Source of the DNA: Mobula hypostoma | Lineage: Eukaryota | Direction of reading: 5' to 3' | NCBI RefSeq assembly: GCF_963921235.1 | Contig: NC_086108.1 | Location: forward strand, 11,966,001 to 12,030,000 | DNA length: 64,000 bases | Part shown: piece by piece, positions 2,606-55,613 of the stretch | Numbering within the stretch: the stretch's first letter is position 1 | Layout: every line of letters starts with the position of its first letter | Translations under genes and position numbers: made by a program | The notes under the pieces: model-generated | The model's input: the letters and a program-made list of their open reading frames with translations, nothing else | Databases searched by the model: none | Told to the model about the DNA's origin: nothing

Positions 2606-4850
2606 TCATACTTGATCTCCGATTAGGGAACCAGACAGGTCAGGTGACAGAAGCATGTGTAGGCAAACATTTTGAGTCCAGTGACCATAATGTCATTAGT
2701 TCCAAGTTAATTATGGATAAAGATAGGTCCGGTCCTCGAGTTAAGGTTCTAAAATGGAGAAGGGCCAATTTTGAGGAAATGGAAAAGGATCTAGGAAGAG
2801 TGGATTGGGATGACTTGTTTTCTGGCAAGGATGTGTTCAGTATGTGGAAGGCATTCAAAGGCGAAATTTTGAGAGTGCAGAGTTTGCATGTTCCTGCCAG
2901 GATTAAAGGCACAGTTAACAGGCATAGGACAGGTCCTGATTAGGACAGCCCGAAACATTGACTGTTTGTTTCCATGGATGCTGCCTGACCTGCTGAGTTC
3001 CTCCAGCATGTTGTGCGTGTTGCTTTGACCCCAGCATCTGCAGAGTATTTTGTGTTTATGGGACAGTAAGGGACAAAATTGGTCCCCTAGAAGATCAAAG
3101 TGGTCATATATTTATGGAGCCTCATGAGATGGGGAGATCTTAAACAATTTGTTTGCATCAGTATTTACTCTGGAAACTGGCATGTGTATATGGAAGGAAG
3201 GGAAACAAGCAGCAGTGTCATGGAACATATGGAGATTAAAGAGGAGGAGGTGCTTGCTGCCTTACAGCAAATAAAGGTAGATAAGTCCTCCGGGCCTGAC
3301 ATGATATTTCCTCGGACCTTGTGAGAGACTAGGTAGAAGTCGTAGGGATCCTGGCAGAAATATTTAAAATGTCTTTAGCCACAGCTATGGCGCCGGAGGA
3401 TTGGAGGGTAGCTCATGTTGTTCCGTTGTTTGAAAAAGGCTCCAAAAGTAAACCAGGTAATTACAGGCCAGTGAGCCTGACATCAGTGGTGGGTAAATTA
3501 TTGGAAGGTGTTCTAAAAGATCGGATATACAAGTATTTGGACTGCCAAGGGCTGATTAAGGATAGTCAGTATGGCTTTGTGTGTGGTAGATCGTGTTTAA
3601 TGAATCTTATAGAGTTTTTTGAGGAGGTTACTAAGAAAATAGATAAAGGAAAGTTTGTGGATGTTGTCTACATGGACTTTAGTAAGGCCTTTGACAAGGT
3701 CCCACATGGGAGGTTAGTTCAGAAGGTTCAGACACTAGGTATCCATGGAGAGCTTGTAAACTGGATTCAAAATTGGCTGTGTGGGAGAAGACAAAGAGTA
3801 GTAGTGGATGATTGTTTATCAGACTGGAGGCCTGTGACTAGTGGTGTGCTTCAAGGATCTGTGCTGGGACCATTGTTGTTTGTTGTCTATATCAATGATC
3901 TAGATAATAATGTGGTAAATTGGATCAGCAAGTTTGCCGATGACACTAAGATTGAAGGTGTTGTGGACAGTGAGGAAGGCTTTCAAAGCTTGCAGAGAGA
4001 TCTGGACCAGCTGGAAAAATGGGCCAGAAAATGGCAGATAGAATTTAATGCAGACAAGTGTGAGGTGTTGCATTTTGGAAGGACAAATCAAGGTAGGACA
4101 TACACAGTAAATGGTAGGGCACTGAGGAGTGTGGAGGAACAAAGAGGTCAGGGAATTCAGATACGTAATTCCCTGAAAGTGACATCACAGGGTTGTAAAG
4201 AAGGCTTTTGGCATCCTGGCATTCAGAAATCAAAGTATTGAGTATAGGAGTTGGGACGTTATGGGGAGGTTGTATAAGACATTGGTGAGGTCAAATTTGG
4301 AACATTGTGTACAGTTCTGGTCACTTAAATATAGGAAGCATATCAGTAAGATTGAAAGAGTGCAGAGAAGATTTACTAGGATGTTGCCGGGTCTTCAGGA
4401 GTTGAGCTACAGGGAAAGATTGAACAGGTTAGGACTTTATTCCTTGGAGCGTAGAAGAATGAGGGGAGATTTGATAGAGGTTTACAAAATTATGAGGGGC
4501 ATAGACAGAGTAAATGTGAATGGGCTCTTTCCACTTAGATTAGGAGTGATAAATACGAGAGGACAGGGCTTTAGGGTGAAAGAGGAAAGGTTTAGGGGGA
4601 ACATTAGGGGGAACTTCTTCACTCAGAGAGTGGTGGGAGTGTGAAATGAGCTGCTATCTGACGTGATAAATGCGGGCTCACTCTCAAGTTTTAATAATAA
4701 ATTGGATAGGTACATGGATAGGAGAGGTCGGGAGGGTTATGGCCTGGATGCAGGTCAATGGGACTAGCGGAAAACTGTTCCTGCACAAACTAGAAGGGCC
4801 TAATGGCCTGTTTTCTGTGCTGTAGTGTTCTATGGTTCTATGGTTCTATA
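2606..4850 (+). pseudogene. 5'-truncated CR1-clade LINE ORF2 (end of endonuclease plus reverse transcriptase), frameshifted
   Basis: Motifs SSDHN, PGNYRPVSLTS, YMDFSKAFDKVPH, GVLQGSVLGP, KFADDTK and RRRMRGDLIEVYK; 3' tail (TTCTATGG)n at 4828-4853. Confidence 0.93.
2930..3058 (+). mobile_element. Penelope-derived short repeat inserted in the CR1
   Basis: CTGATTAGGACAGCCCGAAAC followed by GATGCTGCCTGACCTGCTGAGTTCCTCCAGCA. Confidence 0.7.
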
Positions 4851-15289: not shown

Positions 15290-15873
15290 CCTGGTGGCAT
15301 CCGTTAGTCTCGTGGGACCATGGATCTGTGCCTGGAAAGTTCCAGGGCACAGGCCTGGGTAAGGTTGTATGGAAGACCGGCAGTTGCCCATGCAGCAAGT
15401 CTCTCTCCACAAGACCAATGTTGTCCAAGAGAAGGGCAAGGGCCGATACAGCTTGGCACCAGTGTCATCGCAGGAGTTGCCAGAATGAGGTTGAAGGTAA
15501 CGTCGGACTGCCTTAGGGACTCCAGCTCCAGATTTGTCCTCAGGGTTTACTCCGCAGCCTTTCCCATGAGTGGGTATGGCCGCAAGGCAGCAAAAGTTTG
15601 AAATCAGAGTTTTCCCTCTCTTAGATGAACTGCCTTCCCAGGCTGACGACCTCCATCTACCCAAAGCACTGGTTTTAAAGTGCCAGGACCCGCCTTCTCC
15701 CCTTCTCCTGTCAGTAGAAACAGTTCCGCCGGGCTTAGAGGCTAAGCCGCACGAGAAGGCCAGGAGTTGGGCTTGGTTGACAGAGGCTATTTGAGGCTCA
15801 TGCCGTGAGGAGAACTTTTTGGTAGTGGGAGCTTTTCCCCACTACCACTCCCTGGCTTGACAACCTTGGAACC
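15290..15873 (-). mobile_element. Full-length non-autonomous RTE-type retroelement (~580 bp)
   Basis: 20-bp perfect TSD ATCACTAAACTGTTTCCATA at 15270-15289 and 15874-15893. RTE-like 3' end ATCCATGGTCCCACGAGACTAACGGATGCC. No credible ORF. Confidence 0.8.
15705..15873 (-). ncRNA. Putative HDV/CPEB3-like self-cleaving ribozyme at the element 5' end
   Basis: P1 GGUUCC/GGAACU, P2 CUCCUG/CAGGAG, P3 GCC/GGC, L3 UUCUCGU and J4/2 CUGA occur in canonical order. Folded by eye only. Confidence 0.6.
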
Positions 15874-16035: not shown

Positions 16036-16860
16036 GGTTCCTTAAGGTTGTCAAAGATGGTGACATGGTAATGGGAACAAGCTCTCACTACCCATTAAAT
16101 GCTCCCAGCGGTTTGCGTCTCAAATAACCTCTGACAACAAATTCCAGCTCCTGGCATTCACGTGTGGCTTAGCTACTAAACTTGTCGGAACCATTTTTAC
16201 TGACAGGAGAAGGGGCAAAGGCAGGTTACTGGTGCCTGAAAACCAGTCGCTTCGGGCAGATGGGGCTCTTCGGCCATGGTTGGCAGCTCATCAGGGAGAA
16301 GTAAAGCTCTGATCTCAACCTCCGCTGCCTTGCAGCCATACCCACTCATGGGAAAGGCTTCGGGAGTAAGCCCTGGGGGAAAATCTGGAGCTGGAGTCCC
16401 TCAGACAGTCCTACATTGAGTTCAACTCTGATTGTGACTCCTGTGATGACACTGGTCTCTGTCGTTCCTTTGAGTTCATCAGGCTGGCTGGTGGCGCAAT
16501 GGCATCAGCGCCGGACTCTGGAGCGAAGGCTCCCAAGTCCGAATCGAAGTTGGGCCACCCCCGAGCATGCTTTCCATCTATGCCGGGTTGAACGTCGAGT
16601 TAGCCACTCGGCCTCGTTAAAAAAAAAGGGTTGAGTCAGGAATGTTCATATCGTGACCCAGTTAATCCGAAAGGAGACCGATCCTGACACCACGCGCCAG
16701 ACAAGAATGGCATGACACGCTAAAAAGAAATCAGGTATGTGAAGGGAGGGAGCTTGCTACATGGACAACAGCTTGCTCTGCATATTGTACTTCCCTGGCT
16801 TGCATATCTAAACAGTTAGGACACAACATCCATGGTCATCCCTGACCAACAGAGGCTTCA
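16036..16860 (+). mobile_element. Second, diverged copy of the non-autonomous RTE-type element
   Basis: Colinear with the reverse complement of 15290-15873 (GGTTCC.AAGGTTGTCA, ACTGACAGGAGAAGGGG, GCCATACCCACTCATGGGAAAGGCT, ATCCATGGTC). Confidence 0.8.
16484..16729 (+). mobile_element. CpG-rich tRNA-derived SINE
   Basis: A box TGGCGCAATGG (16492-16502), B-box-like GTCCGAATC (16537-16545), A-rich end, and ATCAGG direct repeats at 16478 and 16730. Confidence 0.75.
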
Positions 16861-17868
16861 GCAGCTCAGCACTTTGCTTATCCGTCTTTTTGGGTGCGGT
16901 CTTTCATTGATCCTGTTGTGTTTCCTGTATTCATCGTGAATACCTGCAAGAAAACAAACCCCAGGGTTGTATATGATGACATGTACTTTGATAATGAATT
17001 CACTTTGAATTTTGATCTTTAAAGTAGAAGTCACACAGTCTGCCTATGCACCAGATATGTCCTTCCTACAGAGAACCCTTTGAGGAGCTGCAAGGGACTG
17101 CTAAGCCTTGGAGAGAAGCCAGGAGGGCTTTCAAAAACTTTATTTGGGAAAGGTAAGGGCAGAAGACTGAGATTTAGTAGCGAAAAGAACTCTTTCACCA
17201 TCTAGTGGGTGATGGGGGAAAGGTCAGATGGGCGAAAGATGTGTGGTGAGGTAGATAGCCAGCTGTCAGAGCGGCTAACACATCTTCACGTTCCCTCACT
17301 CCTTCCTTGCTTAACGTCTGTTAATCTCCGATAGAAAGGCACCAAGCCTAAGTCCCCAAAGTAAAACCTTTCTCCTTCCTCAATTGCTGCAGGCAGGAAT
17401 CCATTTACTAATCACTAGTTAATGATCTGGAACTCACCCAGAGCACACAGGGCAGTAGCTAACACTCCAGACACCCCACAATAGGTGATGTCTCACCAGT
17501 GCCTCTCAATAAAGGCTTCACCCAATTCAGGGAGAGAAGAAGGCTTTAAGAGACATTTTGATAGGCACATAAATATAAGGGAAATGGAATGATATGGACG
17601 TTGTGCAGGCAGAAGAGATTAGTTTAGATTAGAATCAGGTTTAATATCACCAACATACAGGGGCATGCAAAAGTTTGGTCAAAATTTCTGTTACTGTGAA
17701 TAGCTAAACGAGTAAAAGATGATCTGATTTCCAAAAGGCATGAAGTTAAAGATGACACATTTCTTTAATATTTTAAGCAAGATTACTTTTTTTATTTCCA
17801 TCTTTTACAGTTTCAAAATAACAAAAAAGGAAAGGGGCCTGAAGCAAATGTTTGGGCACCCTGCATGG

Positions 17869-19216
17869 TCAGTACTTAGTAACACACCCTTTGGCAAGTA
17901 TCACAGCTTGTAAACACTTTCTGTAGCCAGCTAAGAGTCTTTCAATTCTTGTCTGGGGAATTTTCACCCATTCTTCTTTGCAAAAGGCTCCTAGTTCTGT
18001 GAGATTCTTGGGCCGTCTTGCATGCACTGCTCTTTTGAGGTCTATCCACAGATTCTCAATGATGTTTAGGTCGGGGTACTGTGAGGGCCATGGCAAAACC
18101 TTCAGCTTGTGCTTCTTGAGGTAGTCCATTGAGGCTTTTGAGGTGTGTTTAGAAACATAGAAAAAACATAGAAACATAGAAAATAGGTGCAGGAGTAGGC
18201 CATTCAGCCCTTCGAGCCTGCACTGCCATTTATTATGATCATGGCTGATCATCCAACTCAGAACCCTGCCCCAGCCTTCCCTCCATACCCCCTGACCCCC
18301 GTAGCCACAAGGGCCATATCTAACTCCCTCTTAAATATAGCCAATGAACTGGCCTCAACTGTTTCCTGTGGCAGAGAATTCCACAGATTCACCACTCTCT
18401 GTGTGAAGAAGTTTTTCCTAATCTTGGTCCTAAAAGGCTTCCCCTCTATCCTCAAACTGTGGCCCCTCGTTCTGGAGGATCATTATCCTGTTGTAGAAGC
18501 CAACCTCTTTTCACCTTCAGCTTTTTTACAGATGGTGTGATGTTTGCTTCCAGAATTTGCTGGTATTTAATTGAATTCATTCTTCCCTCTACCAGTGAAA
18601 TGTTCCCCGTGCTGCTAGCTGCAACATAAGCCCAAAGCCTGATCGATCCACCCCTGTGCTTTACAGTTGGAGAGGTGTTCTTTTCATGAAATTCTGCACC
18701 CTTTTTTCTCCAAACATACCTTTGCTCATTGCAGCCAAAAAGTTCTATTTTAACTTCATCAGTCCATAGGACTTGTTTCCAAAATGCATCAGACTTGTTT
18801 AGATGTTCCTTTGCAGACTTCTGATGCTGAATTTTGTGGTGAGGATGCAGGAAAGGTTTTCTTCTGATGACTCTTCCATGAAAGTCATATTTGTGCAAGT
18901 GTTGCCGCACAGTATAACAGTGCACCACCACTCCAGAGTCTGCTAAATCTTCCTGAAGGTCTTTTGCAGTCAAACGGTGGTTTTGATTTGCCTTTTTAGC
19001 AATCCTACAAGCAGTTCTCTTGGAAAGTTTTCTTGGTCTTCCAGACCTCAATTTGACCTCCACCTTTCCAGTTAACTGCTATTTCTTAATTACATTACGA
19101 ACTGAGGAAACGGCTACCTGAAAATGCTTTGCTATCTTCTTATAGCCCCCTCCTGCTTTGTGGGTATCATTAATTTTAATTTTCAGAGTGCTAGGCAGCT
19201 GCTTAGAGGAGCCCAT
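17869..19216 (-). pseudogene. Tc1 DD34E transposase, 340 codons after removing the 325-bp insert, with one premature stop
   Basis: MGSSKQLP start; GRPRK, WTDE, QDNDP|KHT and WPSQYPDLNIIENLW motifs; 34 residues between the second D and E; in-frame TAG at 19079-19081. Confidence 0.92.
18151..18475 (-). mobile_element. CR1 3'-terminal fragment inserted in the transposase catalytic domain
   Basis: RKNFFTQRVVNLWNSLP motif and (TTCTATGT)n tail; it splits DNDP from KHT. Confidence 0.92.
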
Positions 19217-19424: not shown

Positions 19425-22411
19425 AACCATATAACCATATAACAATTACAGCATGGAAACAGGCCATCTTGGCCCTTCTAGTCCATTCCGAACTCTTACT
19501 CTTACCTAGTCACCTGCACTCAGCCCATAACCCTCCATTCCTTTCCTGTCCATATATCTATCCAATTTAACTTTAAATGACAACATCGAACCTGCCTCAA
19601 CCACTTCTGCTGGAAGCTCGTTCCACAGGGCTACCACTCTCTGAGTAAAGAAGTTCCCCCTCATGTCACCCCTAAACTTTTGCCCTTTAACTCTCAACTC
19701 ATGTCCTCGTGTTTGAATCTCCTCCACTCTCAATGGAAAAAGCCTATACACATCAACTCTATCTATCCCCCTCATAATTTTAAATACCTCTATCAAGTCC
19801 CCCCTCAACCTTCTACGCTCCAAAGAATAAAGACCTAACTTGTTCAACCTTTCTCTGTAACTTAGGAGATGAAACCCAGGTAACATTCTGGTAAATCTTC
19901 TCTGTACTCTCTCAATTTTGTTGACATCTTTCCTATAATTCGGTGACCAGAACTGTACACAATGCTCCAAATTTGGCCTTAACAATGCCTTGTACAATTT
20001 CAACATTACATCCCAACTCCTATACTCAATGTTCTGATTTATAAAAACTAGCATACCAAAAGCTTTCTTCACCACCCTATCCACATGAAATTCCACCTTC
20101 AGAGAGCTATGCACCATTAGTCCTAGATCCCTCAGTTCTACTGCATTCTTCATGCCCTACCATTTACCATGTATATTCTATTTTGATTAGTCCTACCAAA
20201 ATGTAGCACCTCACATTTATCAGCATTAAACTCCATCTGCCATCTTTCAGTCCACTCTTCTAACTGGCCTAAATTATTCTCTGCAAGCTTTGAAAACCCG
20301 CATCATTATCCACAACTCCACCTATCTTAGTATCACCTGCATACTTACTAATCCAATTTACCACCCCATCATCCAGGTCATTAATATATATGACAAACAA
20401 CACTGGACCCAGTACAGATCCCTGAGGCACACCACTACACACCGTCCTCCAATCTGACACACAGTTATCCACTACTACTCTCTGGCGTCTCCAATCTAGC
20501 CACGGCTGAATCCATTTTACTACTTCAATATTAACACCTTTTTTAAACAATGGAACAACTTGAGCAATATGCCAATTCTCTGGCACCATCCCCATTTCAA
20601 ATGACATTTGAAATATTTCTGTCTGTGCCCCTGCTATTTCCACGCTAACTTCCCTCAAGTTCCTATGGAATATCCTGTCAGGACCTGGGGACTTATCCAC
20701 TTTTATATTCTTTCAAAGCACCTGTACTTCCTCTTCTTTAATCATCATAGTTTCCATAACTACCCTACTTGTTTCCATTACCTTACACAATTCAATATCC
20801 TTCTCCTTAGTGAATACCGAAGAAAAGAAATTGTTCAAAATCAACACCATCTCTTTTGACTCTGTACATAGCCATCCACTTTGATTCTCTAAGAGACCAA
20901 CTTTATCCCTCACTATCCTTTTGCTGCGAATATAACTATAGAAAGCCTTTGGATTTATTTTCACTTTACTTACCAAAGCAACTTCACATCTTCTTTTAGC
21001 TCTTCTAATTTATTTCTTAAGATTCTTTTTACATTCTTTATATTCTTCAAGCACCTCATTTACTCCAAGCTGCCTGTATTTATTGTAGAACTCTCTCTTT
21101 TTCCGAACCAAGTTTCCAATATCCCTTGAAAACCATGGCTCTCTCAAACTTTTAACCTTTCCTTTCAACCTAACAGGAACATAAAGATTCTGTACCCTCA
21201 AAATTTCATCTTTAAATGACCTCCATTTCTCTATTACACCCTTCTCATAAAACAAATTGTCCTAATCCACTCCTTCTAAATCCTTTCGCATCTCCTCAAA
21301 GTTAGCCTTTCTCCAATCAAAAATCTCAACCCTGGGTCCAGACCTATCCTTCTCTATAATCATATTGAAACTAATGGCATTGTGATCACTGGACCCGAAG
21401 TGCTCCCCAGTACATACCTCCATCACCTGCCCTGTCTCATTCCCTAACAGGAGATCCAACACTGCCCCTTCTCTAGTTGGTACCTCTATGTATTGCTGCA
21501 AAAAATTATCTTGCACGCATTTTACAAACTCCAAACCATCCAGCCCTTTTACAGAATGGGCTTCCCAGTTTATGTGTGGAAAATTAAAATCTCCCACAAT
21601 CACAACCTTGTGCTTACTACAAATATCTGCTATCTCCTTACAAATTTGCTCCTCCAATTCTCGCTCCCCATTAGGTGGTCTATAATACAACCCTATAAGC
21701 GTTACTACACCTTTCCCATTCCTCAATTCCACCCAAATAGCCTCCCTAGAGGAGTCCACTAATCTATCCTGCCAAAGCACCGCTGTTACATTTTCTCTGA
21801 CAAGCAATGCAACACCTCCCCCTCTTGCCCATCCGATTCTATCACACCTGAAGTAACAAAATCCAGGAATACTTAGTTGCCAATCACACCCCTCCTGCAA
21901 CCATGTTTCACTAATCGCTACAACATCATATTTCCAAGTATCAATCCATCCTCTCAGCTCATCCACCTTTCTTACAATGCTCCTAGCATTAAAATAGATA
22001 CATTTAAGAAACTCTCCACCTCTTACTCTCTGCTTATCCATAATGGTGCAAACAACTTTGTTATTCTTTTCTTCCTTCTCCCCTACATCTTCGGTCTGAG
22101 TGCTCCCATTCTCTGTCCCCTGCCTATCCTCCCTCACACACTGCCTACTAGCTTTCTCTATTTGTGAACTAACCTCCTCTCTCCTAGCCTCTTCAATTTG
22201 ATTCCCACCTCCAACCATTCTAGTTTAAAGTCTCCTCAGTAGCCTTCGCAAATCTCCCCGCCAGGATATTGGTCCCTCTAGGACTCAAGTGCAACCTGTC
22301 CTTTTTGTACAGGTCACACCTGCACCAAAAGAGGTCCTAATGATCCAAAAACTTGAATCCCTGCCCCTTGCTCCAATCCCTCAGCCATTCATTTATCCTC
22401 CACATCATTCC
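19425..22411 (-). pseudogene. CR1 LINE: ORF1 esterase C-terminus, APE endonuclease, internally deleted reverse transcriptase and 3' tail
   Basis: LYKKDRLHLSPRG (ORF1 end), YFNARS, ISETW, YYRPP, GDFNFP, GSSDHN, GVPQGSVLGP; PLFKKG is fused directly to VNIEVVKWI; (TTATATGG)n tail. Confidence 0.93.
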
Positions 22412-32349: not shown

Positions 32350-35300
32350 AGAGCTGTAACTGGATAGAGAGGTTTCTCTGACATCTGGAATTAGATTGAA
32401 GATTTCTCTGAGAGCTGAAGTTAAAGACAGAGAGGTTTCTATGAGAGCTCTAATATAATTAAGAGGTTTCACTGAGAGCTGGAATTCAATGGAGAGAGAT
32501 TTCACTGGAAGGTGGAATTTGAAGGAGAAGATTCTCTGAGAGCAGGAACTGGATGGGAAAACTCCTGTGAGAATTGGAATTGGATGGAAAGGTTTCACTG
32601 ACATCTGGAATTAGATTGAGAGGTTTCACTGAGAGCTGGAATTGGACAGAGAGATCTCTCTTAGACCTGGAATTGCATTGAGAGTTAACACTGAGAGTTG
32701 GAATTGGGTGGACAGGTTACATTGAGAGCTGGAATTGAATTGAGTGCTTGTTATGTGAGCTGGTATTCACTGCAGAATTTTCTCTGAGAACTGAAAATGG
32801 ATGCAGAGCTTTCTCTGAGAGCTGGAATTCAATGCAGAGGTTTCTCTTAGAATTGGAAATGGGTGGAGAGGTTTATCTGAGAGCAGGAAATAGATTAAGA
32901 TGCTCCTCTAAGAGCAGGAATTGGATTGAAAGGAGCTCTCAGAGCTGGAAATGAATGGAGGGATTTCTATGAGAACTTAATTTGGATGGAGACGTTTCTA
33001 TCTGTCCTGGAATTTGGATGGAAATGATTCTCTGAGACCTGGAATTGGATGGATAGGTTTCTATGAGTGCTGGAATTGGATGCAAAGCTTTCTATGAGAG
33101 ATGGAATTTGATGGCATCATTTTGTCTGAGAGCTAGAAATGGATGGAGAGGTATCTCTGAGAGCTGGATGTATGGAAAGATTTTTCTGATGGCTGAAACC
33201 GGATAGAGGGGTTTCTCTGAGAGTAGGAATTGCATGGAGAGGTCTCTCTTCGAACTGGAAATGCATGGAGAGCTTTTTCTGAGATCTGGAATTGGATGGA
33301 TAGGTTTCTCTGAGAGCAGAAGATGGATTGGAGATTCCTCTCAAAGTTGGAAGTGGATGGAGAGCTCGATTTGGATGGTGAGGTGTCTATAAGTGCTGAA
33401 GTGTTTCTCTGAGAGCTGGAACTTGGTTGCAGAGGTTCCTCTGAGAGCTAGAAATAGGTGGGGAGTTTTCTCTGAAAGCTGAGTTGGATGGAGAGGTCTC
33501 TCTGAGAGCTTAAATTGGATAGAGTGGTTCTCTGAGAGTTGGAAGTGCATGGAGATTTTTTTCTGAAAGCTGGATATGGATGGCTAGGATTATCTGAGAG
33601 CAGGAATTGGACTGACAAATCCCTCTCAGAGCTGGAAATGGATGGGGAGAATTCTCAGAGAGCCTGATTGGGAAGGAGAGGTGTCTCTAAGTGCTGGAAT
33701 TGGATTGAAATGTTTTTCTGAGAGCTGGAATTGGATGAAGTTTTCTCTGAGAGCCGGAATTTGGTTTGAAAGGTTTCTCTGAAAACTAGGATTGAATGGA
33801 AGGTTTTCTTTGAGAGCTGAAATTGGATCAATAGGTATCTCTGAGAGCTGATTTAGATGGACAGGTCACACTGAGAGCTGGAATTGGATTGAAAGTTTTC
33901 TCTGAGAGCTAGAATTGGATTGATAGGATTCTCTGGGATTTGGAATTGGGTGGAGATGTTTTATTAAGAGCTGAAATTGGATGGAGAGATTTTTCTGAGA
34001 GTGGGAATCCAATGCAAAGGTTTTTCTTAGCACTGCAAATGGATGGAGTGGGTTCTCTGAGAGCTGGAATCAAATGGAAAGGGTTCTCTGAGAACAGGAA
34101 TTTGGATTGAGTGATTTCTCTTATAGCTGGGAATGAATTGGGAGGTTTCACTGAGAGAGGGAATTGGATGGAGAATTTTGTCTGAGAGCTGAAATTGGAT
34201 GAAGTATCTCGGAGAGCTGGAATTTGATGAGTTTTCTCTGAGCATTGAAATTGGATGGAGAGGTTTCTTTGAGAGCAGGAATTGGCCGAGAGGTTGCTCT
34301 ATGAGCAGGGATTTGGATTGAGAGTTTTCTCTGAGAGCTGGAAATGAATGGGGTGGTTTCTCTGAGAGCTGATATTGGATTGATTGGTTTCTCTGAGAGC
34401 TGGAATTGGATGGGATGGCTTCAGTAAGAGCTGGCATTGGATGGAGAGGTTCCTCACAGTGCTCAAAATGGATGAAGAGATTGATTTGAGAGCTTGATTT
34501 GGCTGGGGTAGCTTCTCTGAGAGCTGAAATTGGATGGAAGGTTTGGCAGGGGTAGTTGCTCTGAGAGCAGGAATTGGGTGTAGAGTTTTCTCTGAGATCT
34601 GAAATTGAACGCAGAAGTATTTCTGAGAGCTGGAATTCGATGGGGAAGTTTCTCTGAGAGCTGGAATCAGATGGTAAGGTTTCTATGAGAGCTGGAACTG
34701 GGTGGAATGGTTACTATGAGAGCCACTGTTTGATGGAAACCTGGAGAGCTGGAATATGTTCACTAGGTTACTCTGAGAGCTGGAATTGAATATAAAGGTT
34801 TCTCTGGGGGCAGAAACTAGATGAAGAGGTTTCACAGAGAGCTGGAATTGGATAGAGTGGTCTCTCTGTGAGCTGTATTTCATTGGAGAGGTTTCTCTGA
34901 GATCAGAAATTGGATGCAAAGTTTTCTCTGAGAGCTGGAAGTGCATTGTGAGGTTTCTTTTAGAACTGGAATTGGATAGAGAGTTTCATCTGAGAGCAGA
35001 AATAGGATTCAGAGGTTTCTCTGAGAGTAGGAATTGGCTTGTGAGGTTCCTCTGAGAGATGGATATAGGTGAAGAGGTGCCTCTGAGGCTGGAATTGGAT
35101 GGATAGGTTTCTCTGAGAGCAGGAATTGGGTGTAGAGTTTTCTCTGAGAGCTGAAGTTGGATGCAGAAGTACCTCTGAGAGCTGGAGTTCGATGGGGAAG
35201 TTTCTCTGAGACCTGGAATCATATGGTAAGGTTTCTCTGAGAGCTGGAACTGGGTGGGATTGTTACTATGAGAGCCACCATTTGATGGAAAAGTTTCTCT

Positions 35301-36950
35301 GAGAGCTGGAATTTGTTCACTAGGTTACTCTGAGCTGGAATTTGATGGAGAGGTTTCAGTGAGAGCTGGATTTGTATAGGGAGGTTCCTGTGAGGGCTAG
35401 AGCTGGATGGGAAGGTTTCTCTGAGAAGTGAAGTTGGATGGAGAAGTTTCTCCAAGTGCTTGATTTAGATGGAAAGTTTGCTCTGAGAGCTGGAATTGGA
35501 CGCAAAGTTTTTTTTTTCTGAGATCTGGAATTGGATGGAAAGGTTTCTCTGAGAGCTGGACTTAGATGGAAAAGTTTCTTTGAGAGCTAGACTTGCTCTT
35601 AGAGGTGAAATTGGATCAAATATTTTCTTTGAGAGCTGGAATTGAATTTATATGTTTCCCTGAGAGATGCAATTGAATGGAGCGGTTTCTCTCAGAGATG
35701 GAATTGGATTAAGAGGTCTCTCTGATAGACGGAATTTAATAGAGATTTAATAGAGATGATAATTGGATGGAAAAGTTACTCCGAGAGCTGGATTTGGATG
35801 GAAAAATTCCTCTAAAAGCTGGAATTTGCTGGAGAGGTTTCACTGAGAGATGAATTGGGTGGAGAGGTTTCTCTGAGAGCTGGATTTGGATGAAGAAGTT
35901 TCTTTGAGAGCTGAAATCAGATGGAAAGGTCCCCCTGAGTGCTGGAAATTGGACTGATTACTCTGAGAGTTTTTTTTTTCTCTCCAATCTTACCAAAGGA
36001 TTTCAGCCCAATACATTGACTGCACTTATTTCCATAGATGCTGCCTGGCCTGCTGAGTTCCTCCAGCATGTTACGTGTGTTGCTCAGATTTCCTGGATCT
36101 GCAGGTTTTCTCTTGTTTGTGACTCTGAGAGCTGTAATTGGATGGAAGATTTCTCTGAAAACTGGAATTGGATGGAAAGGTCTGAGAGCAGGATTTGGAT
36201 TAAGAGAGCTGGATTTGAATGGAAATGTTTCTCAAAGAGCTGGAATTGAATTGAGACTTTTCCATGTGAGTTGGAATTGGATGCAGAGTGTTCCCTGTGT
36301 TCCCTGAGAGCTGAAATTGGTTGGAAAGGTCTCTCTTATAGCTGAAATTGGATGGAGAAATTTTCCTGAGAGCTGAAGTTGGATGGAAATTGGATTGAGA
36401 GCTAGAATTGGATGGAGTGGTCTCTGAGAACAGGAAGTAGATTGTGAGGTTTCTCTTCAAACTGGAATTGGATGGAGAATTTAATCTGACAGCAGGAATG
36501 GGATTGAGATGATTCTCTAAGAGTAGGAATTGGATTGAGAGGTTCCTCTGAGAGCTGGAAGGTGAATGGAGTAGACTGTCTGTGAGCTAGAATTCGCTAG
36601 AGAGGTTCTCTGAGATCTAAGATTGGATGCAGAACTTTCTTTGAGAGCAGGAAGTGGATTGTGAGGTTTCTCGCTGAACTGGAATTGGAAGGAGAGGGTA
36701 TCTGAGATCAGAAATTGGATTGATTGGTTTCTCTGAGAGCTGGATTGGTTTTTCTGTGAGATGGAAATGGATGGAGAGGTTTTTTCCTAAAATTGTTTTG
36801 GATTGACAGTTTTATCTGAGAGCTGGAATTAGTTGTTGAGGTCTCTCTGAGAGCTGGAAATCTATGGAGGAGTTTCTCTGAGATCTGTAATTGCATGGAG
36901 AGGTTTCTCTGTGAGAGGCAATTGGATAGAGATAATTTTCTGTGAGTTGG
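32350..36950. repeat. Satellite array, 31-bp unit GAGAGGTTTCTCTGAGAGCTGGAATTGGATG (~140 diverged copies)
   Basis: GGAA at 32607, 32638 and 32669 gives a period of 31. Interrupted by a Penelope-derived insert at ~35970-36121. Confidence 0.95.
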
Positions 36951-37309
36951 CAAATACTCAAAGTGGTGAGTCATTATATAGGAACCACAATGCAATATGA
37001 AATTTTGACACGTGCTATTTGGTAGCAGACTTGATGGGTTGAATGGCCTTGGTGTGTTCCTATATCTTACGGTCGTAGTTTAGGTTTATAACCATGCACT
37101 GAAGTCAGATATTTCTAACTGAGACATTGAGACTGCTTGTTCGGCACCTGAGAATTTATCTCTCTGTTCAAGCAGCTAACTCTTCTCACAATCCAAACAG
37201 CCCTGAAAACTCACCTGTTCTGCTGGGGATACCAGTCTCCAATCACCTCCAGCACAGGGGAAGGGTCGGTGATGGGACCTACAAATCCTAAATGCCAGAC
37301 TTATTTTAC

Positions 37310-38272
37310 CCACACAGATACTGGTGTCAACCCAAACACTGGCACAGAGAGACTGGTTACCCACCCAGACACTGACAGAGGGAGACAAATAGAGACTGGT
37401 GACCATGCAGTTACTGACACACAGATACTGGTGACCCACCCAGACACTGACACACAGAGACTGGTTACCCACCCAGTCAGACACACAGAGATACTGGTAC
37501 AAACCCAGACACTGACGCATAGAGACTGGTTACCAACATAGACACTGACACAGAGAGACTGGTTACCAACACAGTCACAGACACACAGACACTGGTAAAA
37601 ACCTAGTCAGTGATACACAGAAACTGGTGACCGACCCAGACACCGACACAGAGATACTGGTACCAGCATAGACACTGACACACAGAGACTGGTACAAACC
37701 CAGACACTGACACACAGAGACTGGTGACTCATGCAGTTACTGACACACAGAGACTGTTGACCCACCCAGGTACTGACACACAGAGACTAGTACCAATCCA
37801 GACACTGACAGAGGGAGACTGGTGACCCCCACAGACACTGACACACAGTGACTGGTGACCCACCCAGACACTGACACACAGAGACTGGTATAAACCCAGA
37901 TACTGACACACAGTGACTGGTGACCAACACAGACACTGACACACAGAGATACTGGTACCAACATAGACACTGACACACAGAGACTGGTACAAACCCAGAC
38001 ACTGACACAGAAAGACTGGTACAAACCCAGACACTGACACACAGAGACTGGTGACCCACCCAGACACTGGCACAGAGAGACTGGTGCAAACCCAGACACT
38101 GACAGAGGGAGACTGGTACCAACATAGACACTTACACACAGAGACTGGTGACCCACACAGACACTGACACACAGAGACTGGTACAAACCCAGGCACAGAC
38201 ACAGAGAGACTGGTGACCCACCCAGACACTGACACATAGAGACTAGTACAAACCCAGACACTGATGCACAGA
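37310..38272. repeat. Satellite array, ~32-bp unit ACACAGAGACTGGT(ACAAAC/GACCCAC)CCAGACACTGAC (~30 copies)
   Basis: GACTGGT at 37687 and 37719; strong AC strand bias. Confidence 0.95.
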
Positions 38273-39189
38273 GGCTGAGTGGATCACTCTGAGGTGGATC
38301 ACACTGAGTTGGAGTTAGATCCACCTATGCCATGCTTGTGATCTAGTTGAATGCTCCTCTCAGAGTCACAGGTGCCTCCTCTGTGGAGTTTCACTCCTTG
38401 TGTAGTAAGACACATTCTTAACTGTCTCTTTCATCAGGTTTCTTGCCAAGTATTTTGCAGTCCCCATTTCTGCCAAGCCATCTGCTCCTTTCAACATTGT
38501 ACAAGTCATGATCAGCTCTTTGCTGTAGTAGAGGGAAGCCAGCACCACCTCTGGGATACATCACCCCCAAACTCCTCCAATCCATGTAAGGGTACATTTA
38601 CCCCACCACATCATTTCCTTTGTTTTGTATTTGTAGTTTATTGTCTTCTGCACTTTGGTTGGACACCTGAGTTGGATGGTCTTTCATTGATTCTGCTATG
38701 GTTATTATTCTATAGATTTACTGAGTATGCCCAATAGAACTTTTGGGTCTGCCTCTCAAAAATCTCCTTCATTACCAACTGCATCTTTATCAAAATGGTT
38801 CATCATGTGTTTACTTGGTTTCTTTCTCAGTGGTCACGAATTAATTCTTCAATTATTCATTGTAATAATTCAATCACAATGGAGAGAAGGTCAGAAGTTT
38901 GTTGTATTGCATTGGTTAAACCACTACCGACTTTGGGTCCATTAAGCTTGACCTTGTCCACCATTATTGACCTCCTACCAATGTCGTCTTTGAGGAGCAA
39001 GGCCGAAGAATCTCTGAGGTACTCTTCCCTGGAAATTGGAGAGAATGGATCTTGAAGGAGTTTGAGAAGTCAGATACAATTTAAAGGATGCAAAAGATAC
39101 TAGCTATGGGAACTAGCAGAGAAAGGAGATGAAGCCTATGCAGATTAGTCCGATTGAATTCATTGGTGGGGAGGGTTGGGACCAAATAT

Positions 39190-39770
39190 CCATAACATAT
39201 AGGAGCAGAATTATGCCATTTGGCCAGTCGACTCTACTCCACCATTTCATCATGGCTGATCTATTTTTCCTCTCAGCACCAATCTCCTGCCTTCTCCCTG
39301 TAACAAATCATGCCCTGAATAACCTAGAATCTATCATACTCAGTCTTAAATATACCCAATGACCTGGCCTCAACATCTGCCCTTAGCAATGAATTCCACA
39401 GATTTGGCACTCTCTGGCTAAAGAAATTCCTCCTCATCTCTACTTAAATGGACATCCCTCTATTCTGAGGCTGTATTCCACCTTAGGAAACATCCTTTCC
39501 ACATCCACTATACCAAGGCCTTTCAACATTCAATAGGTTTCAATGAGATTCCCCCACATTCTTCTGAATTTCAGTGAGTACTAGCTCAGAGCCATCACAT
39601 ACTCTTCATATGACAAGCCTTTCAATCCCAGAGTCATCTTTGTGAACCCCCTTTTACCTTTTCCAATGTCAGTACATCCTTTCTTCAATAACTGCTTGCA
39701 ATACTCCAAATGAGGCCTCACCAATGCCTTGTACAGCCTCACCATTTCATCCTTGCATTTATATTCTAGT
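39190..39770 (-). mobile_element. CR1 3' fragment
   Basis: Same family as 29135-29780 and 31285-31620. Confidence 0.8.
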
Positions 39771-40579
39771 TAAATATAAAAGGGGTGAGTGATCTTGTTT
39801 TTTTGTATTCTGAAGTCATCTCTAGCCACCAGCCAAGCCACACCTCCTGATTAATCTTTCACTGAGTGATGGCCTCTATCTGATGCCTCACTTTTGTGTG
39901 AGTGCTGTCCTTTATTGCTGTCTATTCCTTTCAAGTAGTATATTCATGTGCAATCAGCCATTGGTTTCACAAATGCAGGTGGTCCCAGTCAGATGGGAAA
40001 TGATGCCCTGTTACTCCCCCTGCTCCCACTCGAGACCGACTGCATAGAGCACCAGGCAAAGGTAGACAGCCCGGTGTTTGTTCAATTCTGCAGCACAAGA
40101 AATTACTGAGGGGAATCAGAAAATCTCAGTTTTGACTTAAGGTCACAATAGTATGAATCATTCTCATCATAATAACTCCAAACAGCTGGTCCATTCATTA
40201 CACACCCAGGAACTACTATGAAAATAATCCTGCATGGAAATTTGTCCTTGCAAAATCAAACTGGGAGATAAATTGGAAAGAGAAGACATTGAAGGGATTA
40301 AAGGTGATCACTTCCTCTATATCTATTTAATGATGCTTGCTTTGCACCCTCACGCACACAGCAGTCACATCGAGGAGCTGTTACAACCTCCTGAACATAC
40401 TGCATTATTTTGCAGGCACTTAGGAAATTAACTCCCATCATTTCTTCATGCACAAATGAATTCTCTTTTCTAACATTAAAAATCCCTTGACCCTGCTCCC
40501 ACATGTTCCTCACTCACTCCAGAATGATATCGAGTGTCTGTGATATTACCCTTGCATTGTAACATGGGACAGGCAGTTC

Positions 40580-42975
40580 TGAGTGTGGTTCACTTTAGTG
40601 TGATAAATCTCAGTGTTAGCCATCTCAGTGTGATCCACATCTGTGTGATCCAACTCGGTGTGATCCATCTCGGTGTGATCCATCTCGGTGTGATCCACCT
40701 CAATGTGATCCACCTCTGTGTGGTCCACCTCAGTGTGATCCATCTCAGTGTGATCCACATCTGTGTGATCCAACTCAGTGTGATCCATCTTGGTGTGATC
40801 CATCACAGTGTGATCCACATCTGTGTGAATCATCTCAGTGTGATCCAGTTCAGTGTGATCCAACTCGGTGTGATCCATCACAGTGTGATCCATCTCGGTG
40901 TGATCCACATCTGTGTGAACCATCTCAGTGTGATCTACCTCAGTGTGATCCAGTTCAGTATGATCCAACTCGGTGTGATCTATCTCAGAGTGATCCACCT
41001 CTGTATGATCCACACTGCTTGATCCACCTCATTGTGATCTATGACAGTGTGATCCATCTCGAAGTTATACATCTCAGTGTGATCCACCTCTGTGTGATCC
41101 AACACAGTGTAACCCACATCAGTGTGATCCAACTCAGTGTGATCTGCTTCAGTATGGTCCATCTCAGTGTGATCCATCTCGGTGTGATCCATCACAGTGT
41201 GATCCACATCTGTGTGACCCATCTCAGTGTGATCCAGTTCAGTGTGATCCATCACAGTGTGATCCATCTTGGTGTGATCCACATCTGTGTGAACCATCTC
41301 AGTGTGATCTATCTCAGTGTGATCCAGTTCAGTATGATCCAACTCGGTGTGATCTATCTCAGAGTGATCCACCTCTGTATGATCCACACTGCTTGATCCA
41401 CCTCATTGTGATCTATGACAGTGTGATCCATCTCGAAGTTATACATCTCAGTGTGATCCACCTCTGTGTGATCCAACACAGTGTAACCCACATCAGTGTG
41501 ATCCAACTCAGTGTGATCTGCTTCAGTATGGTCCATCTCAGTGTGATAAATATCAGGGTGATCCACCTCAGCATGATCCAAACCAGTGTGATCCAACTCA
41601 GTATGTTCCCTCACGATGTGATCCACCTCAGTGTGACCTGTCTCAGCATGATCCATCTTTGTATGATCTGCTTCAGTGTGATCGACCACTGTATGATCCA
41701 CTACAGTGTGATCGAACATCGTGTGAAAAATATCAGTGTCATCCAACTCAATTTGATCCACAATCTGATCCACCTCAGTGTGATCCATACAAGAGTGATC
41801 CACCTCAGTGTGATCCATCTCAGTGGGATCCAATGTAGTGTGATCCACCCCTGTATGATAAATATCAGTGTGATCTATCTCAGTGTGATCCATCAAAGTT
41901 TCATCCATCACCTGTGTGATCCACCTCAGTGTGATCCATAAGAGTGTGATCCACCTCAGTGTGATCCATGAAAGAGTGACCCATTGCAGTGGGATCCAAC
42001 TTAGTGTGAACTTCCCCTGTATGATAAATATCAGTGTGATCCACCTCAGTGTGATCCATCTCAGTGTGTTCCATTTCAGTGTGATCCACCTCAGTGTGAT
42101 GCACCTCAGTGTGATCCACTTCAGTGTGATCCATCTCAGTGTGATCCACCTCAGTGTGATCCATCACAGTGTGATCCATCATAGTTTCATCCATCACTGT
42201 GTGATCCACCTCAGTGAGATCCATCATAGTGTGATCCACCACAGCGTGATCCATAGGAGTGTGATCCACCTCAGTGTGATCCATGCAAGAGTGATCCACC
42301 TCAGTGTGATCCACCGCAGTGGGATCCAACTTAGTGTGAACCGCCCCGTATGATAAATATCAGCATGATCCACCTTAGTGTGATCCATCTCAGCGTGATC
42401 CATCTCAGTGTGATCCACCTCAGTGTGATCCAACTCAGTGATCCACCTCAGTGTGATGCACCTCAGTGTGATCCACCTCAGTGTGATGCACCTCAGTGTG
42501 ATCCATCTCAGTGAGATCCATCAGTGTGATCCATCACAGTGTGATCCATCTCAGTGTGATCCACCTCATTGTGATCCACCTCATTGTGATCCACCTCAGT
42601 GTGATCTATCACAGTGTGATCCATCTCAGTGAGATCCATCACAATATGATCCGTCTCAGGTGATCTACATCAGTGTGATTCACCACAGTGTAGTCCATCA
42701 CAGTGTGATCCATCTCAGTGTGATCCACCTCAGTGTGATCCATCTCAGTGTGATCCATCTCAGTATGATCCACCAGTGTGATGCACCTCAGTGTGATCCA
42801 CCTCAGTGTGATGCACCTCAGTGTGATCCATCTCAGTGAGATCCATCAGTGTGATCTACCTCAGAGTTATCCATCTCAGTGTGATTCAACTCAGTGTGAT
42901 AAATATCAGTGTGATCTATCTCAGTGTTATTCAACTCAGTGAGATCCACCATTATGTTATCCACACTGCTTGATC
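40580..42975. repeat. Minisatellite, 15-bp unit GTGTGATCCA(C/T)CTCA (~155 copies)
   Basis: Direct 15-bp periodicity, which generates the (DHTEV)n and (VIHLS)n ORFs. Confidence 0.97.
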
Positions 42976-47612: not shown

Positions 47613-50012
47613 TAAGCCATTCAATCGTGGAATCATTTCCATGAAGCTCCTTTGACTGCTCTCCTGTTACTGTACATCCTTTCTACTTTCTAAAATAAGG
47701 AGCCCAAACCTGCTCACAGTACTCCAAGTGAGGCCTCACCAGTGTTTTATAAAGTTTCAACATTGCATCCTTGCTTTTATATCCTAGCCCTCTTGAAATG
47801 AATGCTAACATTGCATTTGCCCTCCTCACCATAGACTCAACCAGCATGTTAACCTTTAAGGAATCCTGCATAAGGATTCCTAAGTCCCTTTGCATCTCAG
47901 TTTTTTGTATTTCCTCTCCATTTAGAAAATAGTCAACCCCTTTTTTTAGATTATGAGAACACTCAGTCCTCTTTTATTGTCATTTAGAAATGCATGCATG
48001 CATTAAGAAATGATGCAGTGTATCACTTCTTCTACCAAAGTGCATGACCATACACTTCCTGGCATTGTATTCCATCTGACATTTCCTTGCCCATTTTTCT
48101 AATCTGTCTAAGTCCTTCTGTAGCTTCTCTACTTCCTCAAAACTACCTGCTCCTTCACCTATCTTCATATCGTCTGCAAAGTCATCAATTCCATTATCCA
48201 AATCATTGAGGTATAAGGTAAAAAGAATTATACACGGACCCCAATGAAACGCCACAAGCCTCTAGCAGCCAGTCAGAAAAGGTTCCCGTTATTCCCACTC
48301 TTTAACTCCTGCCAGTCAGCCACTGTTTTATCCATGCTAATTTTTTCCTGAAATGCCATGGGCTCATAGCCTGTGAAGCAACCTCATCCATAGCATCTTG
48401 TCAAGGGCCTTTTGAAAGTCCAAGTACACAACATCAACTGATTCTCCTGTCTACCTTGTTTGTTACTTCTTCAAAGAATTCCAACAGATTTGTCAGACAA
48501 GTTTTTCCCTTGAGGAAACCATGCTGACTATGGCTCATGTGCCTCCAAGTACCCTAAGACCTCATCCTTAATAATCGACTCCAACATCTTCCCAGTCACT
48601 GAGGGCAGACTAACTGGCCTATGGTTTCCTTTTTTCTGCCTCTCTCCCTTCTTGAAGTGTGGATTGATATTTCCAATTTTCCAGTCTTCTGGAAACCATT
48701 CCAGAATCTAATGACTCTTGAAAGATCATGGGAAATGCTTCCACAATCTCTTCAGCCACCTCTTTCAGAACACTGGGGTGGACTCCATCTAGTCTAAGTG
48801 ACTTATTTACCTTCAGTCCTTTCAGTTTCCCAAGAACCTTCTCTCTAGTTATGGTAACTTCACACACTTCACGCATCCTCCCCCACCACCATACATAGTG
48901 TCTTCCCTGGTGAAGACTGACATAAATTACTTATTCAGTTCATCCTCTCTTTCGTTGCCCCCAGCACAGCATCATTCTCCAGTAGTCCAATATCCACTCT
49001 CGCCTCTCTTATACACTTTATGCGTCTGAAGAAACTTTTCGTATCCTCTTTAGTATTATTAGCAAGCTTACTTTTGTATTCCATCTTTACCTTCTTAATA
49101 ACTTTTTAGTTGCCTTCTTTTGGTTTTAAAAGCTTCCCAATCATCTAACTCCCATTAATCTTTGCTGTATTACAAGCCCTCTCTTTGGCTTTTATGTTGG
49201 CTTTGACTTTTCTTTTAGCCATTTTGTCATCCTTCTTTTAAGATACTTCTTCCTTTTTGTGAGGTATATATCCTGTGCCTTCCGAGTTTCTTCCAGAAAT
49301 TCCAGCCATTGTGCTCTGCCATCATCCCTACCAGTGTTCTTTACCAATCAATTCTGGCTAACTTCCCACTCATGGCTCTGTAATTCCCTTTATTGTACTG
49401 TAATACGGATACATGTGACTTTAGCTTCTCCTTATCAAATGCTGGAGTGAATTCGATCATGTTATAATCATTTGTCCCTAAGGGTTCTTTTACCTTAAGG
49501 TTTCTAATCAATTCCAGTTCATTGCACAACATCCAATTAAGAATAGCTGATCCTCCAGTGGGCTCAACCATGAGCTACTCTAAAAAGCCATCTTGAAGGC
49601 ACTCTAGAAATTTCCCCTGCTGTAACCCAGCACCAACCTGATTTTCCAATCTACCTGCATATTGAAGTCGGCTATGACTATTGCAATGTTGCTATTTTGG
49701 CGTGTATTTTTATCTCCTGTCATAATTTGTAGACAACATCTTTACTACTCTTCGGGGGTCCGTATACAGTACCCATCAGGGTGTTTTACCCTTGCAGTTC
49801 CTTAGCTCTATCCACAATGATTCAACACATTCCAACCCTATGTCATTTCTTCCTAATGATTTGTTTTCATTTTTTACCAGCAGAGCAATGCCACTCCCTC
49901 TGCCTTCCTGCCTGCCTTTCAATACAATGTGTATCCTTGGATATTAAACTTCCAGCTATAATCTTTCAGCCATGATTCTGTGATGCCTAATACATCATAC
50001 CTGTCAATCTGC
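47613..50012 (-). pseudogene. Decayed CR1 ORF2 (endonuclease to reverse transcriptase) lacking its 3' end
   Basis: VKEPLGTNDYNMIEF, DGVHPSVLKEVAEEI, FADDMKIG and LVRPHLEYCEQVWAP motifs with many frameshifts. Confidence 0.9.
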
Positions 50013-53000: not shown

Positions 53001-55613
53001 GTCTACAGACTGTTAGCCCAACATGAAATGTCTACAGATTACCTGATACACATGAAATGTCTACAGAATGTCAGTCCAATATGAAATGCGTACAAACTTT
53101 CAGTCCACAAAGAAATCTCTGCAGACAGTCAGTGGAACATGAAATGTCTACAGACTGTCAGTCCACTATGAAATATCTACAGACAGTCAGTCCAAAAAGA
53201 AATGTCAACAGTCGTTCAGTCCAACAAGAAATCTCGGTGGACAGTCAGTTGAACATGAAATGTCTGAAGACTGCCAGTCCAATATGAAAAGTATACAGAC
53301 TGTCAGCCCACCATAAAATATCTAAAGACAGTCAGTACAATGTGGAATGTATACAGACTGTCACTTCAACATGGAAAAGTCTACAGACTTTGAGCCTCTA
53401 TGAAATGTCTGCAGACCATCAGTCCAACATGAAAGGTCAAAAGACACTCAGTCCAATACGAAATGTCTACAGACTGTCAGACCAAAATGAAATGTCGAAA
53501 GACAGTCAGTCCAAAATGAAAAGTCTAGAGATGGCCAGTCCAATACGAAATGTCTAGAGACTGTCAGTCCAACATGGAATGTCTATAATCTTCCAGTCCA
53601 ACATGAAACGTCTACAGACTGCTAATCCAACATGATATGTCAACAGACTAACAATCCAAGATGAAATAACTACAGACTTTCAGTCCACCATGAAATGCCT
53701 GCAGACTGTCAGTCCAACATGAAATGTGTACAGACTGTCAATCTACCATGAAGTGCCTACAAACTGTAAGTCCAACATGGAATGTCTACAATTTTCCAGT
53801 CAAACATGAAATGTCTACAGACTGCCAATCCAACATGATATGTCAACAGACTAACAGTCCAAGAATCTCGACAGACATTCAGTCCACAAGAATAATCTGC
53901 AGAATGTCAGTCCAAGATGAAATAACTACAGCCTGTCATTTGAACATGAAATGTCAACAGACTGACAGTCCAAAATGAAATGTCTACAGACTGTCAGTCT
54001 AACTTCAGATCCCTACAGACTGTCAGCCCAACATGCAATGTCTACAGATTACTTGTTACACATGAGATGTCTACAGAATGACAGTCCAACATGAAATGTC
54101 TACAGGCTGTCAGTACAATGTGGAATAACTTCACACTGTCAGACAAACATGAAATCTCTACAGTCCAAAATGAAATGCCTGCAGACAGTCAGTACAACGT
54201 GAAATGTCTAGACACTGCCAGTCCAACATGTAATCTCAACAGACTGCCTGTGCAAGATGAAATGACTACAGGCTTTCAGGCCACCATAAAATGCCTGCCG
54301 ACTGTCATTTCAACATGAACTGTTAATGACTGGCAGTCCACCATGAAGTGTCTACAGACTGGCAGCCAAACATAGAATGTCTACAGCCTGTCAGCACACC
54401 ATGAAATATCTACGCACTGTCAGTCAAAATGAAATGTCTACTGTCTGTACAACAGGCAATGTCTCCAGACTGTCAGTTCAAAATAAAATGATTACAGACT
54501 GTTAGACCACCATGTAATGTCTACAGACTGTCAGTCCACCATGAAAAGTCTGTAGGCTGTCATTCTAACTTGAAATGTCTACAGACTTTGAGTCCACCAA
54601 AAAATGTCTGCAGCCTCTCAGCCCAACATGAAATGTCTTCAGTTGTCGGCCCAACATGAAATCTCTACAGACTGTCAGTGGAACATGAAATCTCTACAGA
54701 CTGTCGGTCCTATATGAAAAGTCTACAGTCTATCAGGCCAAATTCAGAAGTCTGCAGATTGTCAATCCACCATGAAATGTCTATAGACCGTCAGTCCACC
54801 ATGAAATGTCTGCAATAATCAAGTCCAACATGAAATGCCAACAGACTGCCAGTCCAAGACAAAATGTCTGCAGACTTTCAGTCCACAAAGAAATGACTGC
54901 AGACTGTCAGTCCAAAATGAAATGTCCACAGACAGTCAATACAACAAGAAGTGTCTAGAGACTGCCAGTCCAACATTAAATCTCAACAGACTGCCTATCC
55001 AAGATGAAATGACTACAGACTTTCAGGCCACCATGAAATGCCTGCAGACTGTCAGTCCAACATAGAATGCCTATCATCTTCCAGTCAACATGAAATGTCT
55101 ACAGACAGTCAGTCCAACATGAAATTTCAGCAGACTGCCAATCCAACATGAAATTTCTACAGACTACCAGTCCAACATGAAATCTCAATAGACTGCCAGT
55201 CGAAGATGAAATGTCTACAGACTGTCAGTCCACCATGACATGTCTACAGGGTGTTACTCAAACATGGAATGTCAACAGACTTCATGTCCAACGTGAAATG
55301 TCTACAGACTGTCAGTCCAACATGAAATCTCTACAGACTGCTAGTCTACCATGAAAAGTCTACGGACTGTCAGTCCACCATGAAATATTTACAGACTGTT
55401 AGTCCAATATGAAAGCTCCACAGACTGTCGTACAACATGGAATGTCAACTGACTGCCAGTCCAAAATGAAATGTCGATAGACAGTCCATCCAACATGAAA
55501 TGTCTACTGTCAGTGTAACATACAATATCTAAGACTCAGTCCATAATGAAATATCTTCTGAATGTCACCCCAAAGTGAAATATCTACAGACTGTCAGTCC
55601 TATATAAACAGTC

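Follow-up and report, generated by a model that had tools for sequence, protein, structure and literature searches.

The minus strand between positions 15873 and 15705 of the window, the whole 64,000-nt stretch of Mobula hypostoma DNA analysed here, raises the question of whether a retroposon can begin with an HDV-like self-cleaving ribozyme whose core loop carries an additional helix. The sequence-only reading had proposed such a ribozyme, and its strands for P1, P2, P3, L3, the hairpin, G15721 and C15714 all lie at the minus-strand positions it gave. The best-supported interpretation, to which we assign a probability of about 0.78, is an HDV-like self-cleaving ribozyme that comes from the 5' UTR of an RTE-clade LINE and was inherited by an internally deleted, non-autonomous derivative. 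The proposed link between an HDV-like fold and a retroposon 5' end is borne out, as the element is RTE-derived, its pairings are kept and it starts at G1.

The strands follow one another in the order P1, P2, P3, L3, P3', P1', P1.1, J4/2 and P2', with a 20-nt insertion placed before P3' (Table 1). As expected of an HDV-like ribozyme, J4/2 opens with a C and has an A three bases on, a spacing that corresponds to C57 and A60 in the available excerpt of an HDV-like ribozyme study (PMC13635239). In the A, B and C consensuses, L3 also shows the conserved U and G of the class, and its C can pair with the G after P1', while the G's of this pattern are lost at CpG sites in many copies. In HDV-like ribozymes, P3 directly closes an L3 of 7-8 nt; here the hairpin intervenes, and this is the variant feature. 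Two smaller elements of the original proposal stand in modified form. Its 5-bp J1/2 helix is present, but the family form has 8 bp, and the copy in the window carries one pair-breaking change there; its G1-U wobble is also present but belongs to particular subfamilies, with G-C in 16 of 30 family-B copies.

Table 1. Coordinates of the motif, its retroposon and the neighbouring copy in the window.
Feature	Position	Strand	Remarks
Non-autonomous bipartite RTE retroposon, family A	15873-15293	-	581 bp; motif is the first 169 bases
Upstream target-site duplication	15896-15873	-	24 bp, one mismatch, 95.8% identical to 15292-15269; 21-bp exact core
Downstream target-site duplication	15292-15269	-	
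P1 5' strand	15873-15868	-	Pairs with 15727-15722; predicted cleavage just 5' of G15873, a site deduced from HDV-like architecture
J1/2 domain	15867-15767	-	101 nt; pair counts over family copies
J1/2 closing helix	15865-15858 with 15782-15775	-	8 bp
J1/2 hairpin	15846-15838 with 15829-15821	-	9 bp; family B has an A-C mismatch at one pair
P2	15766-15761 with 15710-15705 (P2')	-	Family copy pair counts
P3	15760-15758 with 15730-15728 (P3')	-	
L3	15757-15751	-	7 nt; subfamilies differ at the fourth L3 base only
Insertion between L3 and P3'	15750-15731	-	20 nt; holds 7-bp hairpin 15748-15732; retained in A, B and C
P3' and P1' strands	15730-15722	-	
P1.1 G15721 and 6-nt linker in place of P4	15721-15715	-	P1.1 pairing putative
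J4/2 with putative catalytic C15714	15714-15711	-	Identical 4-mer in canonical L089
Decayed family-B copy	16036-16870	+	77% over 426 bp; P3 and P1.1 G mutated; ~260-bp insert; 3' end approximate

A strict descriptor that permits a hairpin after L3 matches the window once, at this motif, and matches nothing on either strand of 60 dinucleotide-shuffled windows; because the descriptor was composed once the motif was known, this test excludes only a commonplace match. P2, P3 and the hairpin all appear in the ViennaRNA centroid (z = -2.29, with 3 of 200 shuffles as good), and in the predicted fold of this copy bases 1-4 are paired with bases 96-99, in competition with P1. An Rfam scan of the motif matched no HDV, CPEB3 or drz model. 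This silence is uninformative, since a scan of seven related loci, six of them with canonical folds, likewise produced no HDV-family match.

Judged by its sequence, the element that carries the motif is a bipartite non-autonomous RTE, since an RTE-derived 5' UTR is joined to an RTE-like 3' end, the last ~40 bases of an RTE LINE. Elements of this bipartite kind have been described, as the accessible text of PMC5786205 reports. The closer parent (L083 with L088), which lies in the same genome, is 94-95% identical over family-A positions 1-537 and then continues into endonuclease and reverse-transcriptase frames; a 302-aa piece of it shares 80% identity with a protein of Pristis pectinata and 60-69% with proteins of marine invertebrates and metagenomes. 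Family C (L065 with L063) is a decayed full-length RTE whose 5' UTR is 77% identical to family-A positions 100-537. The last 38 bases of family A are 74% identical to the RTE 3' end in L063, and it is this locus, rather than the direct parent, on which the 3' assignment of the element rests. Family-A elements carry ACC-repeat tails. An origin as a tRNA-derived SINE was rejected, as the head is an RTE UTR and ARAGORN finds no tRNA.

Several observations accompany these parental loci. The family-C RTE in L065:226-262 has a truncation near position 100, in front of which lies a short copy of its own 5' end in inverted orientation. A lead based on PF20049, L061 (G000:C36:131598700-131603300, minus), was set aside as an intact 1,018-aa RTE of another family that lacks similarity to the element; its reading frame is unbroken, it ends in a short GAA-repeat tail, and a scan of its 5' UTR gave no HDV-like match. 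The comparisons leave out four of the 14 family-C windows (L068 without a match, L070 truncated, L079 and L081 covering another part or orientation) and three of the six group-2 windows (L082, L085, L086).

The surroundings of the element are rich in other repeats. The family-A copy at 15873 and the decayed family-B copy at 16036 stand head to head, 162 bases apart, with their ribozyme heads pointing away from each other. The ~260-bp insert in the family-B copy, at approximately 16480-16735 (+), has a flanking repeat of ~6 bases and, by eye, a tRNA-promoter-like head; ARAGORN called no tRNA in it, and it is probably a SINE. Transposase-like and reverse-transcriptase-like frames at 17869-19078 (-), 3333-4241, 19506-22224 and 56120-56953, named by eye, presumably belong to other mobile elements. 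The stretches at 34000-42200 and 50000-64000 show long, strong base skew and repetitive open frames, and are probably tandem arrays.

The family is abundant in the 3.48-Gb genome. First-look candidates number 7,368 for family A, where 40 were scored at 88-100%, and 12,849 for subfamily B, which is older than A. Mean identity to the respective consensus is 95.4% for 30 A copies and 89.6% for 29 B copies. The copy in the window is ~92% identical, with an intact core and a weakened J1/2 helix. The genome contains 2,249 exact matches to a 19-mer that spans P3, L3 and the hairpin, against none to its control.

Copies of the family tend to begin exactly where an HDV-like ribozyme would cut. Among the 30 best A copies, a set biased to full length, 22 start at G1. 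When the first 20 of the 2,249 19-mer matches are taken regardless of their ends, nine start at G1 and 15 start within bases 1-7, with unrelated flanks, and five align only from bases 18-98. The predicted cut site coincides with the family's first base. The ribozyme had been placed at the first base inside the target-site duplication. It does start at the element's first base, G15873, but this G is also the last base of the duplication and is common to target and element. A duplication was detected in 15 of 30 family-A copies, and nine of those 15 share a G with the element in the same way. Contigs from three runs of other organisms, hundreds to thousands of which lie on the stretch, show a summed depth that falls ~8- to 20-fold across 15871/15872, a measure that cannot reveal RNA ends; one raw-read run placed 0 reads on the stretch.

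Comparison of copies across the genome, which the sequence-only reading had suggested as a check, shows that the P1, P2 and P3 pairings are conserved across the subfamily consensuses, with compensatory change in P2 alone within A, B and C. The 62-nt core has four fixed consensus differences between A and B, six between A and C and four between B and C, none of which breaks a predicted pair; for comparison, the 99 nt of J1/2 have 16, 14 and 12. P2 pair 111:166 is C-G in 32/33 A and 29/30 B copies and U-A in 10/10 C copies, a compensatory change. In the hairpin, whose loop differs between subfamilies, A and B have U-A at pair 129:139, where 10/10 C copies have U-G. The putative catalytic C is kept in 71 of 73 copies (33/33 A, 29/30 B, 9/10 C).

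Individual copies are less regular than their consensuses. All six P1 pairs are present in 38 of 72 copies (21/33 A, 14/30 B, 3/9 C), and CpG decay breaks P3 pair 116:144 in 5/33 A, 10/30 B and 5/10 C copies. Incomplete P1 and CpG-broken P3 are expected of neutrally decaying copies, but they are no evidence for the fold. Two-sided changes within A, B and C amount to one, in P2, which counts as one evolutionary event, with none in P1 and none in the hairpin. Covariation as a whole is seen in one P2 pair (A and B against C) and one P1 pair (family D against L118), and in no hairpin pair within a lineage. Across RTE families, the same pairings recur with different letters.

A search with 40 aligned RTE proteins identified 80 metagenome loci, and 34 metagenome 5' regions were scanned for delta-type folds; most contain no convincing fold. 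Canonical delta-type folds that lack the hairpin precede the reading frames of L089, L090, L115, L116, L126 and L127, against a background of one canonical-descriptor match in 897 kb of shuffled loci. L143 has a canonical fold by a looser, noisy descriptor and is the sole locus accepted from that search. L090 lacks P4, and its linker has the same length and nearly the same letters as the linker in the window. The relative of L090 in this genome is family E (221 candidates; 12 copies compared). Its core is almost identical to that of family A, P4 is missing, and L3 matches that of family A with one base added. The 7-nt link to J4/2 in family E equals that of family A in length and has nearly the same letters in all 12 copies. 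Family E carries a single base where family A has its hairpin, which places the insertion at the eighth L3 base, as had been proposed; this base we take to be the extruded U27 of HDV.

The second hairpin type appears in family D, the relative of L118 in this genome (1,816 candidates; 20 fetched, 97.2% identical to consensus). Family D has a 7-bp P1, a GG P1.1 in 19/20 copies and a P4, and 16/20 copies start at G1. At the same L3/P3' junction it carries a 6-bp hairpin of unrelated sequence, with all six pairs intact in 18/20 copies. P1 pair 2 is G-C in family D and U-A in L118, a compensatory change, with the L118 register set by eye where the script had picked a different one. The insertion-type descriptor gives three matches in shuffles, and its matches in L109 and L124 are probably due to chance. 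The hairpin also occurs in the metagenome contigs L118 and L159, so the suggestion of an undescribed vertebrate subtype is not supported. All four combinations of hairpin and P4 exist, three of them in this genome (A-C, D and E); replacement of P4 by the hairpin is ruled out because all four occur. By eye, a single C seems to bulge out close to the start of P2' in both family D (L169-L188) and family E (L189-L200). The P1 5' strand is present twice in family D, 9 bases apart. L130:370-440, a relative of L118, has a similar hairpin and, by eye, apparently no L3, and is perhaps a decayed copy.

A 10-row protein tree separates the two hairpin types by a 100/100 branch and places each within a set of canonical relatives; a 38-row quick tree agrees. 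A constraint that unites both types is rejected (p-AU 5e-8), and one that unites A, C and L159 is weakly rejected (p 0.012). A single origin of the hairpin-bearing elements is rejected by this test at the ORF level. The pattern could reflect two gains of the hairpin, or losses and 5' UTR swaps, and the tree cannot tell which. The type of 5' UTR conflicts with the reading-frame tree, as family C groups with canonical L089; L159 likewise joins an A-like UTR, with J4/2 deleted, to a distant frame. This conflict suggests an exchange of UTRs among RTEs.

By analogy with known HDV-like ribozymes, the element would be read through from upstream promoters, and its RNA would fold into a nested double pseudoknot in which C15714 acts as the general acid, together with Mg2+, and the cut falls 5' of G1. 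Available portions of earlier reports place cleavage at the first base of P1 and the active site in L3 and J4/2 (PMC4908430), identify the C of J4/2 as a proton donor that works with Mg2+ and describe a weak P1.1 as tolerated (PMC13635239), and describe the release of promoter-less elements from co-transcripts (PMC6765202). The freed RNA would be bound at its RTE 3' end by the RTE protein in trans, and insertion would proceed by target-primed reverse transcription, often joining at the shared G. The 20-nt hairpin, which replaces a single base between L3 and P3', would project outward as a tolerated peripheral module. Cleavage is likely, as a prediction from the HDV-like fold, and the source elements were probably active. 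The copy in the window, with its weakened J1/2 helix, may cut poorly.

Other explanations turn on what the hairpin does to this fold. It may disable or strongly slow the ribozyme, leaving a relic or an element for protein binding or translation, while the 5' end would come from an internal promoter or a reverse-transcription stop. L3 and P3 build the active site, according to the accessible text of PMC4908430, so an insertion could harm it; pairing of the hairpin's first GGC with the P3 5' strand could misfold the core, and Pr77 of L1Tc, in the part of its description available, is both promoter and ribozyme. Yet the hairpin-bearing families A and D are young by their identity to consensus, abundant and begin at the predicted cut, and the catalytic C, L3 and pairings are retained across subfamilies, which makes a disabling role unlikely. 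A bolder proposal is an active, undescribed natural subclass of HDV-like ribozymes in which RTEs have, on two or more occasions, acquired a helix inside the catalytic loop. The hairpin would then perhaps have arisen by duplication of P3' and serve as a co-transcriptional decoy that times cleavage, an idea prompted by the 5'-arm triplet, which begins the hairpin and can pair with the P3 5' strand in both lineages. We regard this proposal as possible though doubtful.

The same triplet raises the possibility that the first GGC (15748-15746) is the true P3', with a 9-nt L3 and the supposed hairpin outside the active structure. The triplet is conserved, is able to pair with the P3 5' strand and is spared the CpG decay seen in the second GGC. 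P1' must follow P3', however, and the second GGC alone precedes the complement of the first six bases, a G and a C-N-R-A linker; the centroid fold favours the hairpin, and the sole fixed change in its stem preserves pairing. This register is very improbable. A chance resemblance within a structured retroposon UTR, which the short helices and the missing Rfam match might suggest, is barely credible and already largely refuted, given the absence of matches in the shuffled windows and the recurrence in RTE relatives of this strand order in different letters, which in families A-D starts at the first base of the element.

Among the three departures from the canonical fold that had been claimed for the motif, the hairpin stands, but the 6-bp P1 and vestigial P4 are not novel, because both are ordinary in print. 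A P1 of 6 or 7 bp is typical of HDV-like ribozymes (PMC4908430, in excerpt; PMC3774820), P4 is absent in five silkmoth R2 ribozymes, and the accessible part of PMC10879173 describes minimal HDV-like ribozymes that lack it. The novelty is the hairpin between L3 and P3' on an otherwise known RTE-type HDV-like ribozyme, whose fold is, as far as sequence comparison goes, real and conserved. No description of a helix at this junction was found in the literature, in a scope that excludes Ruminski 2011, Webb 2009, Webb and Luptak 2011 and bioRxiv supplements, including that of a 2026 ribozyme survey. Chordate RTEs are reportedly covered in Ruminski 2011, so the hairpin variant may already be drawn there. 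If these RNAs cut, the delta-fold core loop tolerates a whole helix in nature, which would offer a new engineering site beside the active centre. They would also expose a blind spot in structure-based searches, as the entire class would escape descriptors that fix the length of L3. With three hairpin/P4 combinations and thousands of copies in one genome, natural sequences offer a way to measure what each module does. The role in freeing a retroposon 5' end is already known.

The CPEB3 ribozyme is a single-copy intronic RNA with a P4, a short J1/2 and no known hairpin. We take the L3 of families B and C to match the CPEB3 loop. P1.1 would consist here of one G-C pair plus a U-U pair, as in CPEB3 (PMC9901934). 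The minimal and theta HDV-like ribozymes likewise lack P4, but they are compact, come from phage or metagenome contexts and have no L3 insertion reported in the available text of PMC10879173. The drz-Agam-2-1 ribozyme shares a large structured J1/2 between P1 and P2, whereas the accessible portion of PMC4908430 reports no L3 hairpin for it. The bipartite RTEs RTE-N2_Lch, WALLSI3 and RTESINE2 (Kojima 2018, PMC5786205, in part) resemble the element in joining an RTE 5' UTR to a short 3' end, with a short-repeat tail and a target-site duplication, although the element matched no name in a repeat library. By eye, the middle of the element resembles segments of RTE-3_BF and RTE-12_AMi in the available part of the PMC5786205 supplement. 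The portion of PMC5786205 at hand gives no ribozyme structure for bipartite RTEs, and motif look-up in two supplements returned no ribozyme part for this family.

RTE is among the clades with both 5' HDV-like ribozymes and bipartite elements (PMC5786205, in excerpt), and such ribozymes are reported at the 5' ends of RTE, R2, R4, Baggins and L1Tc/Ingi (Ruminski 2011, as cited in the accessible parts of PMC5786205, PMC6765202 and PMC3774820). The motif resembles these ribozymes in its position at the first base, strand order, 3-bp P3 and pattern of L3 and J4/2, as well as in the 6-7-bp P1, long J1/2 and optional P4. It differs from them, as far as the available portions of these sources describe them, in the 7-bp hairpin between L3 and P3'.
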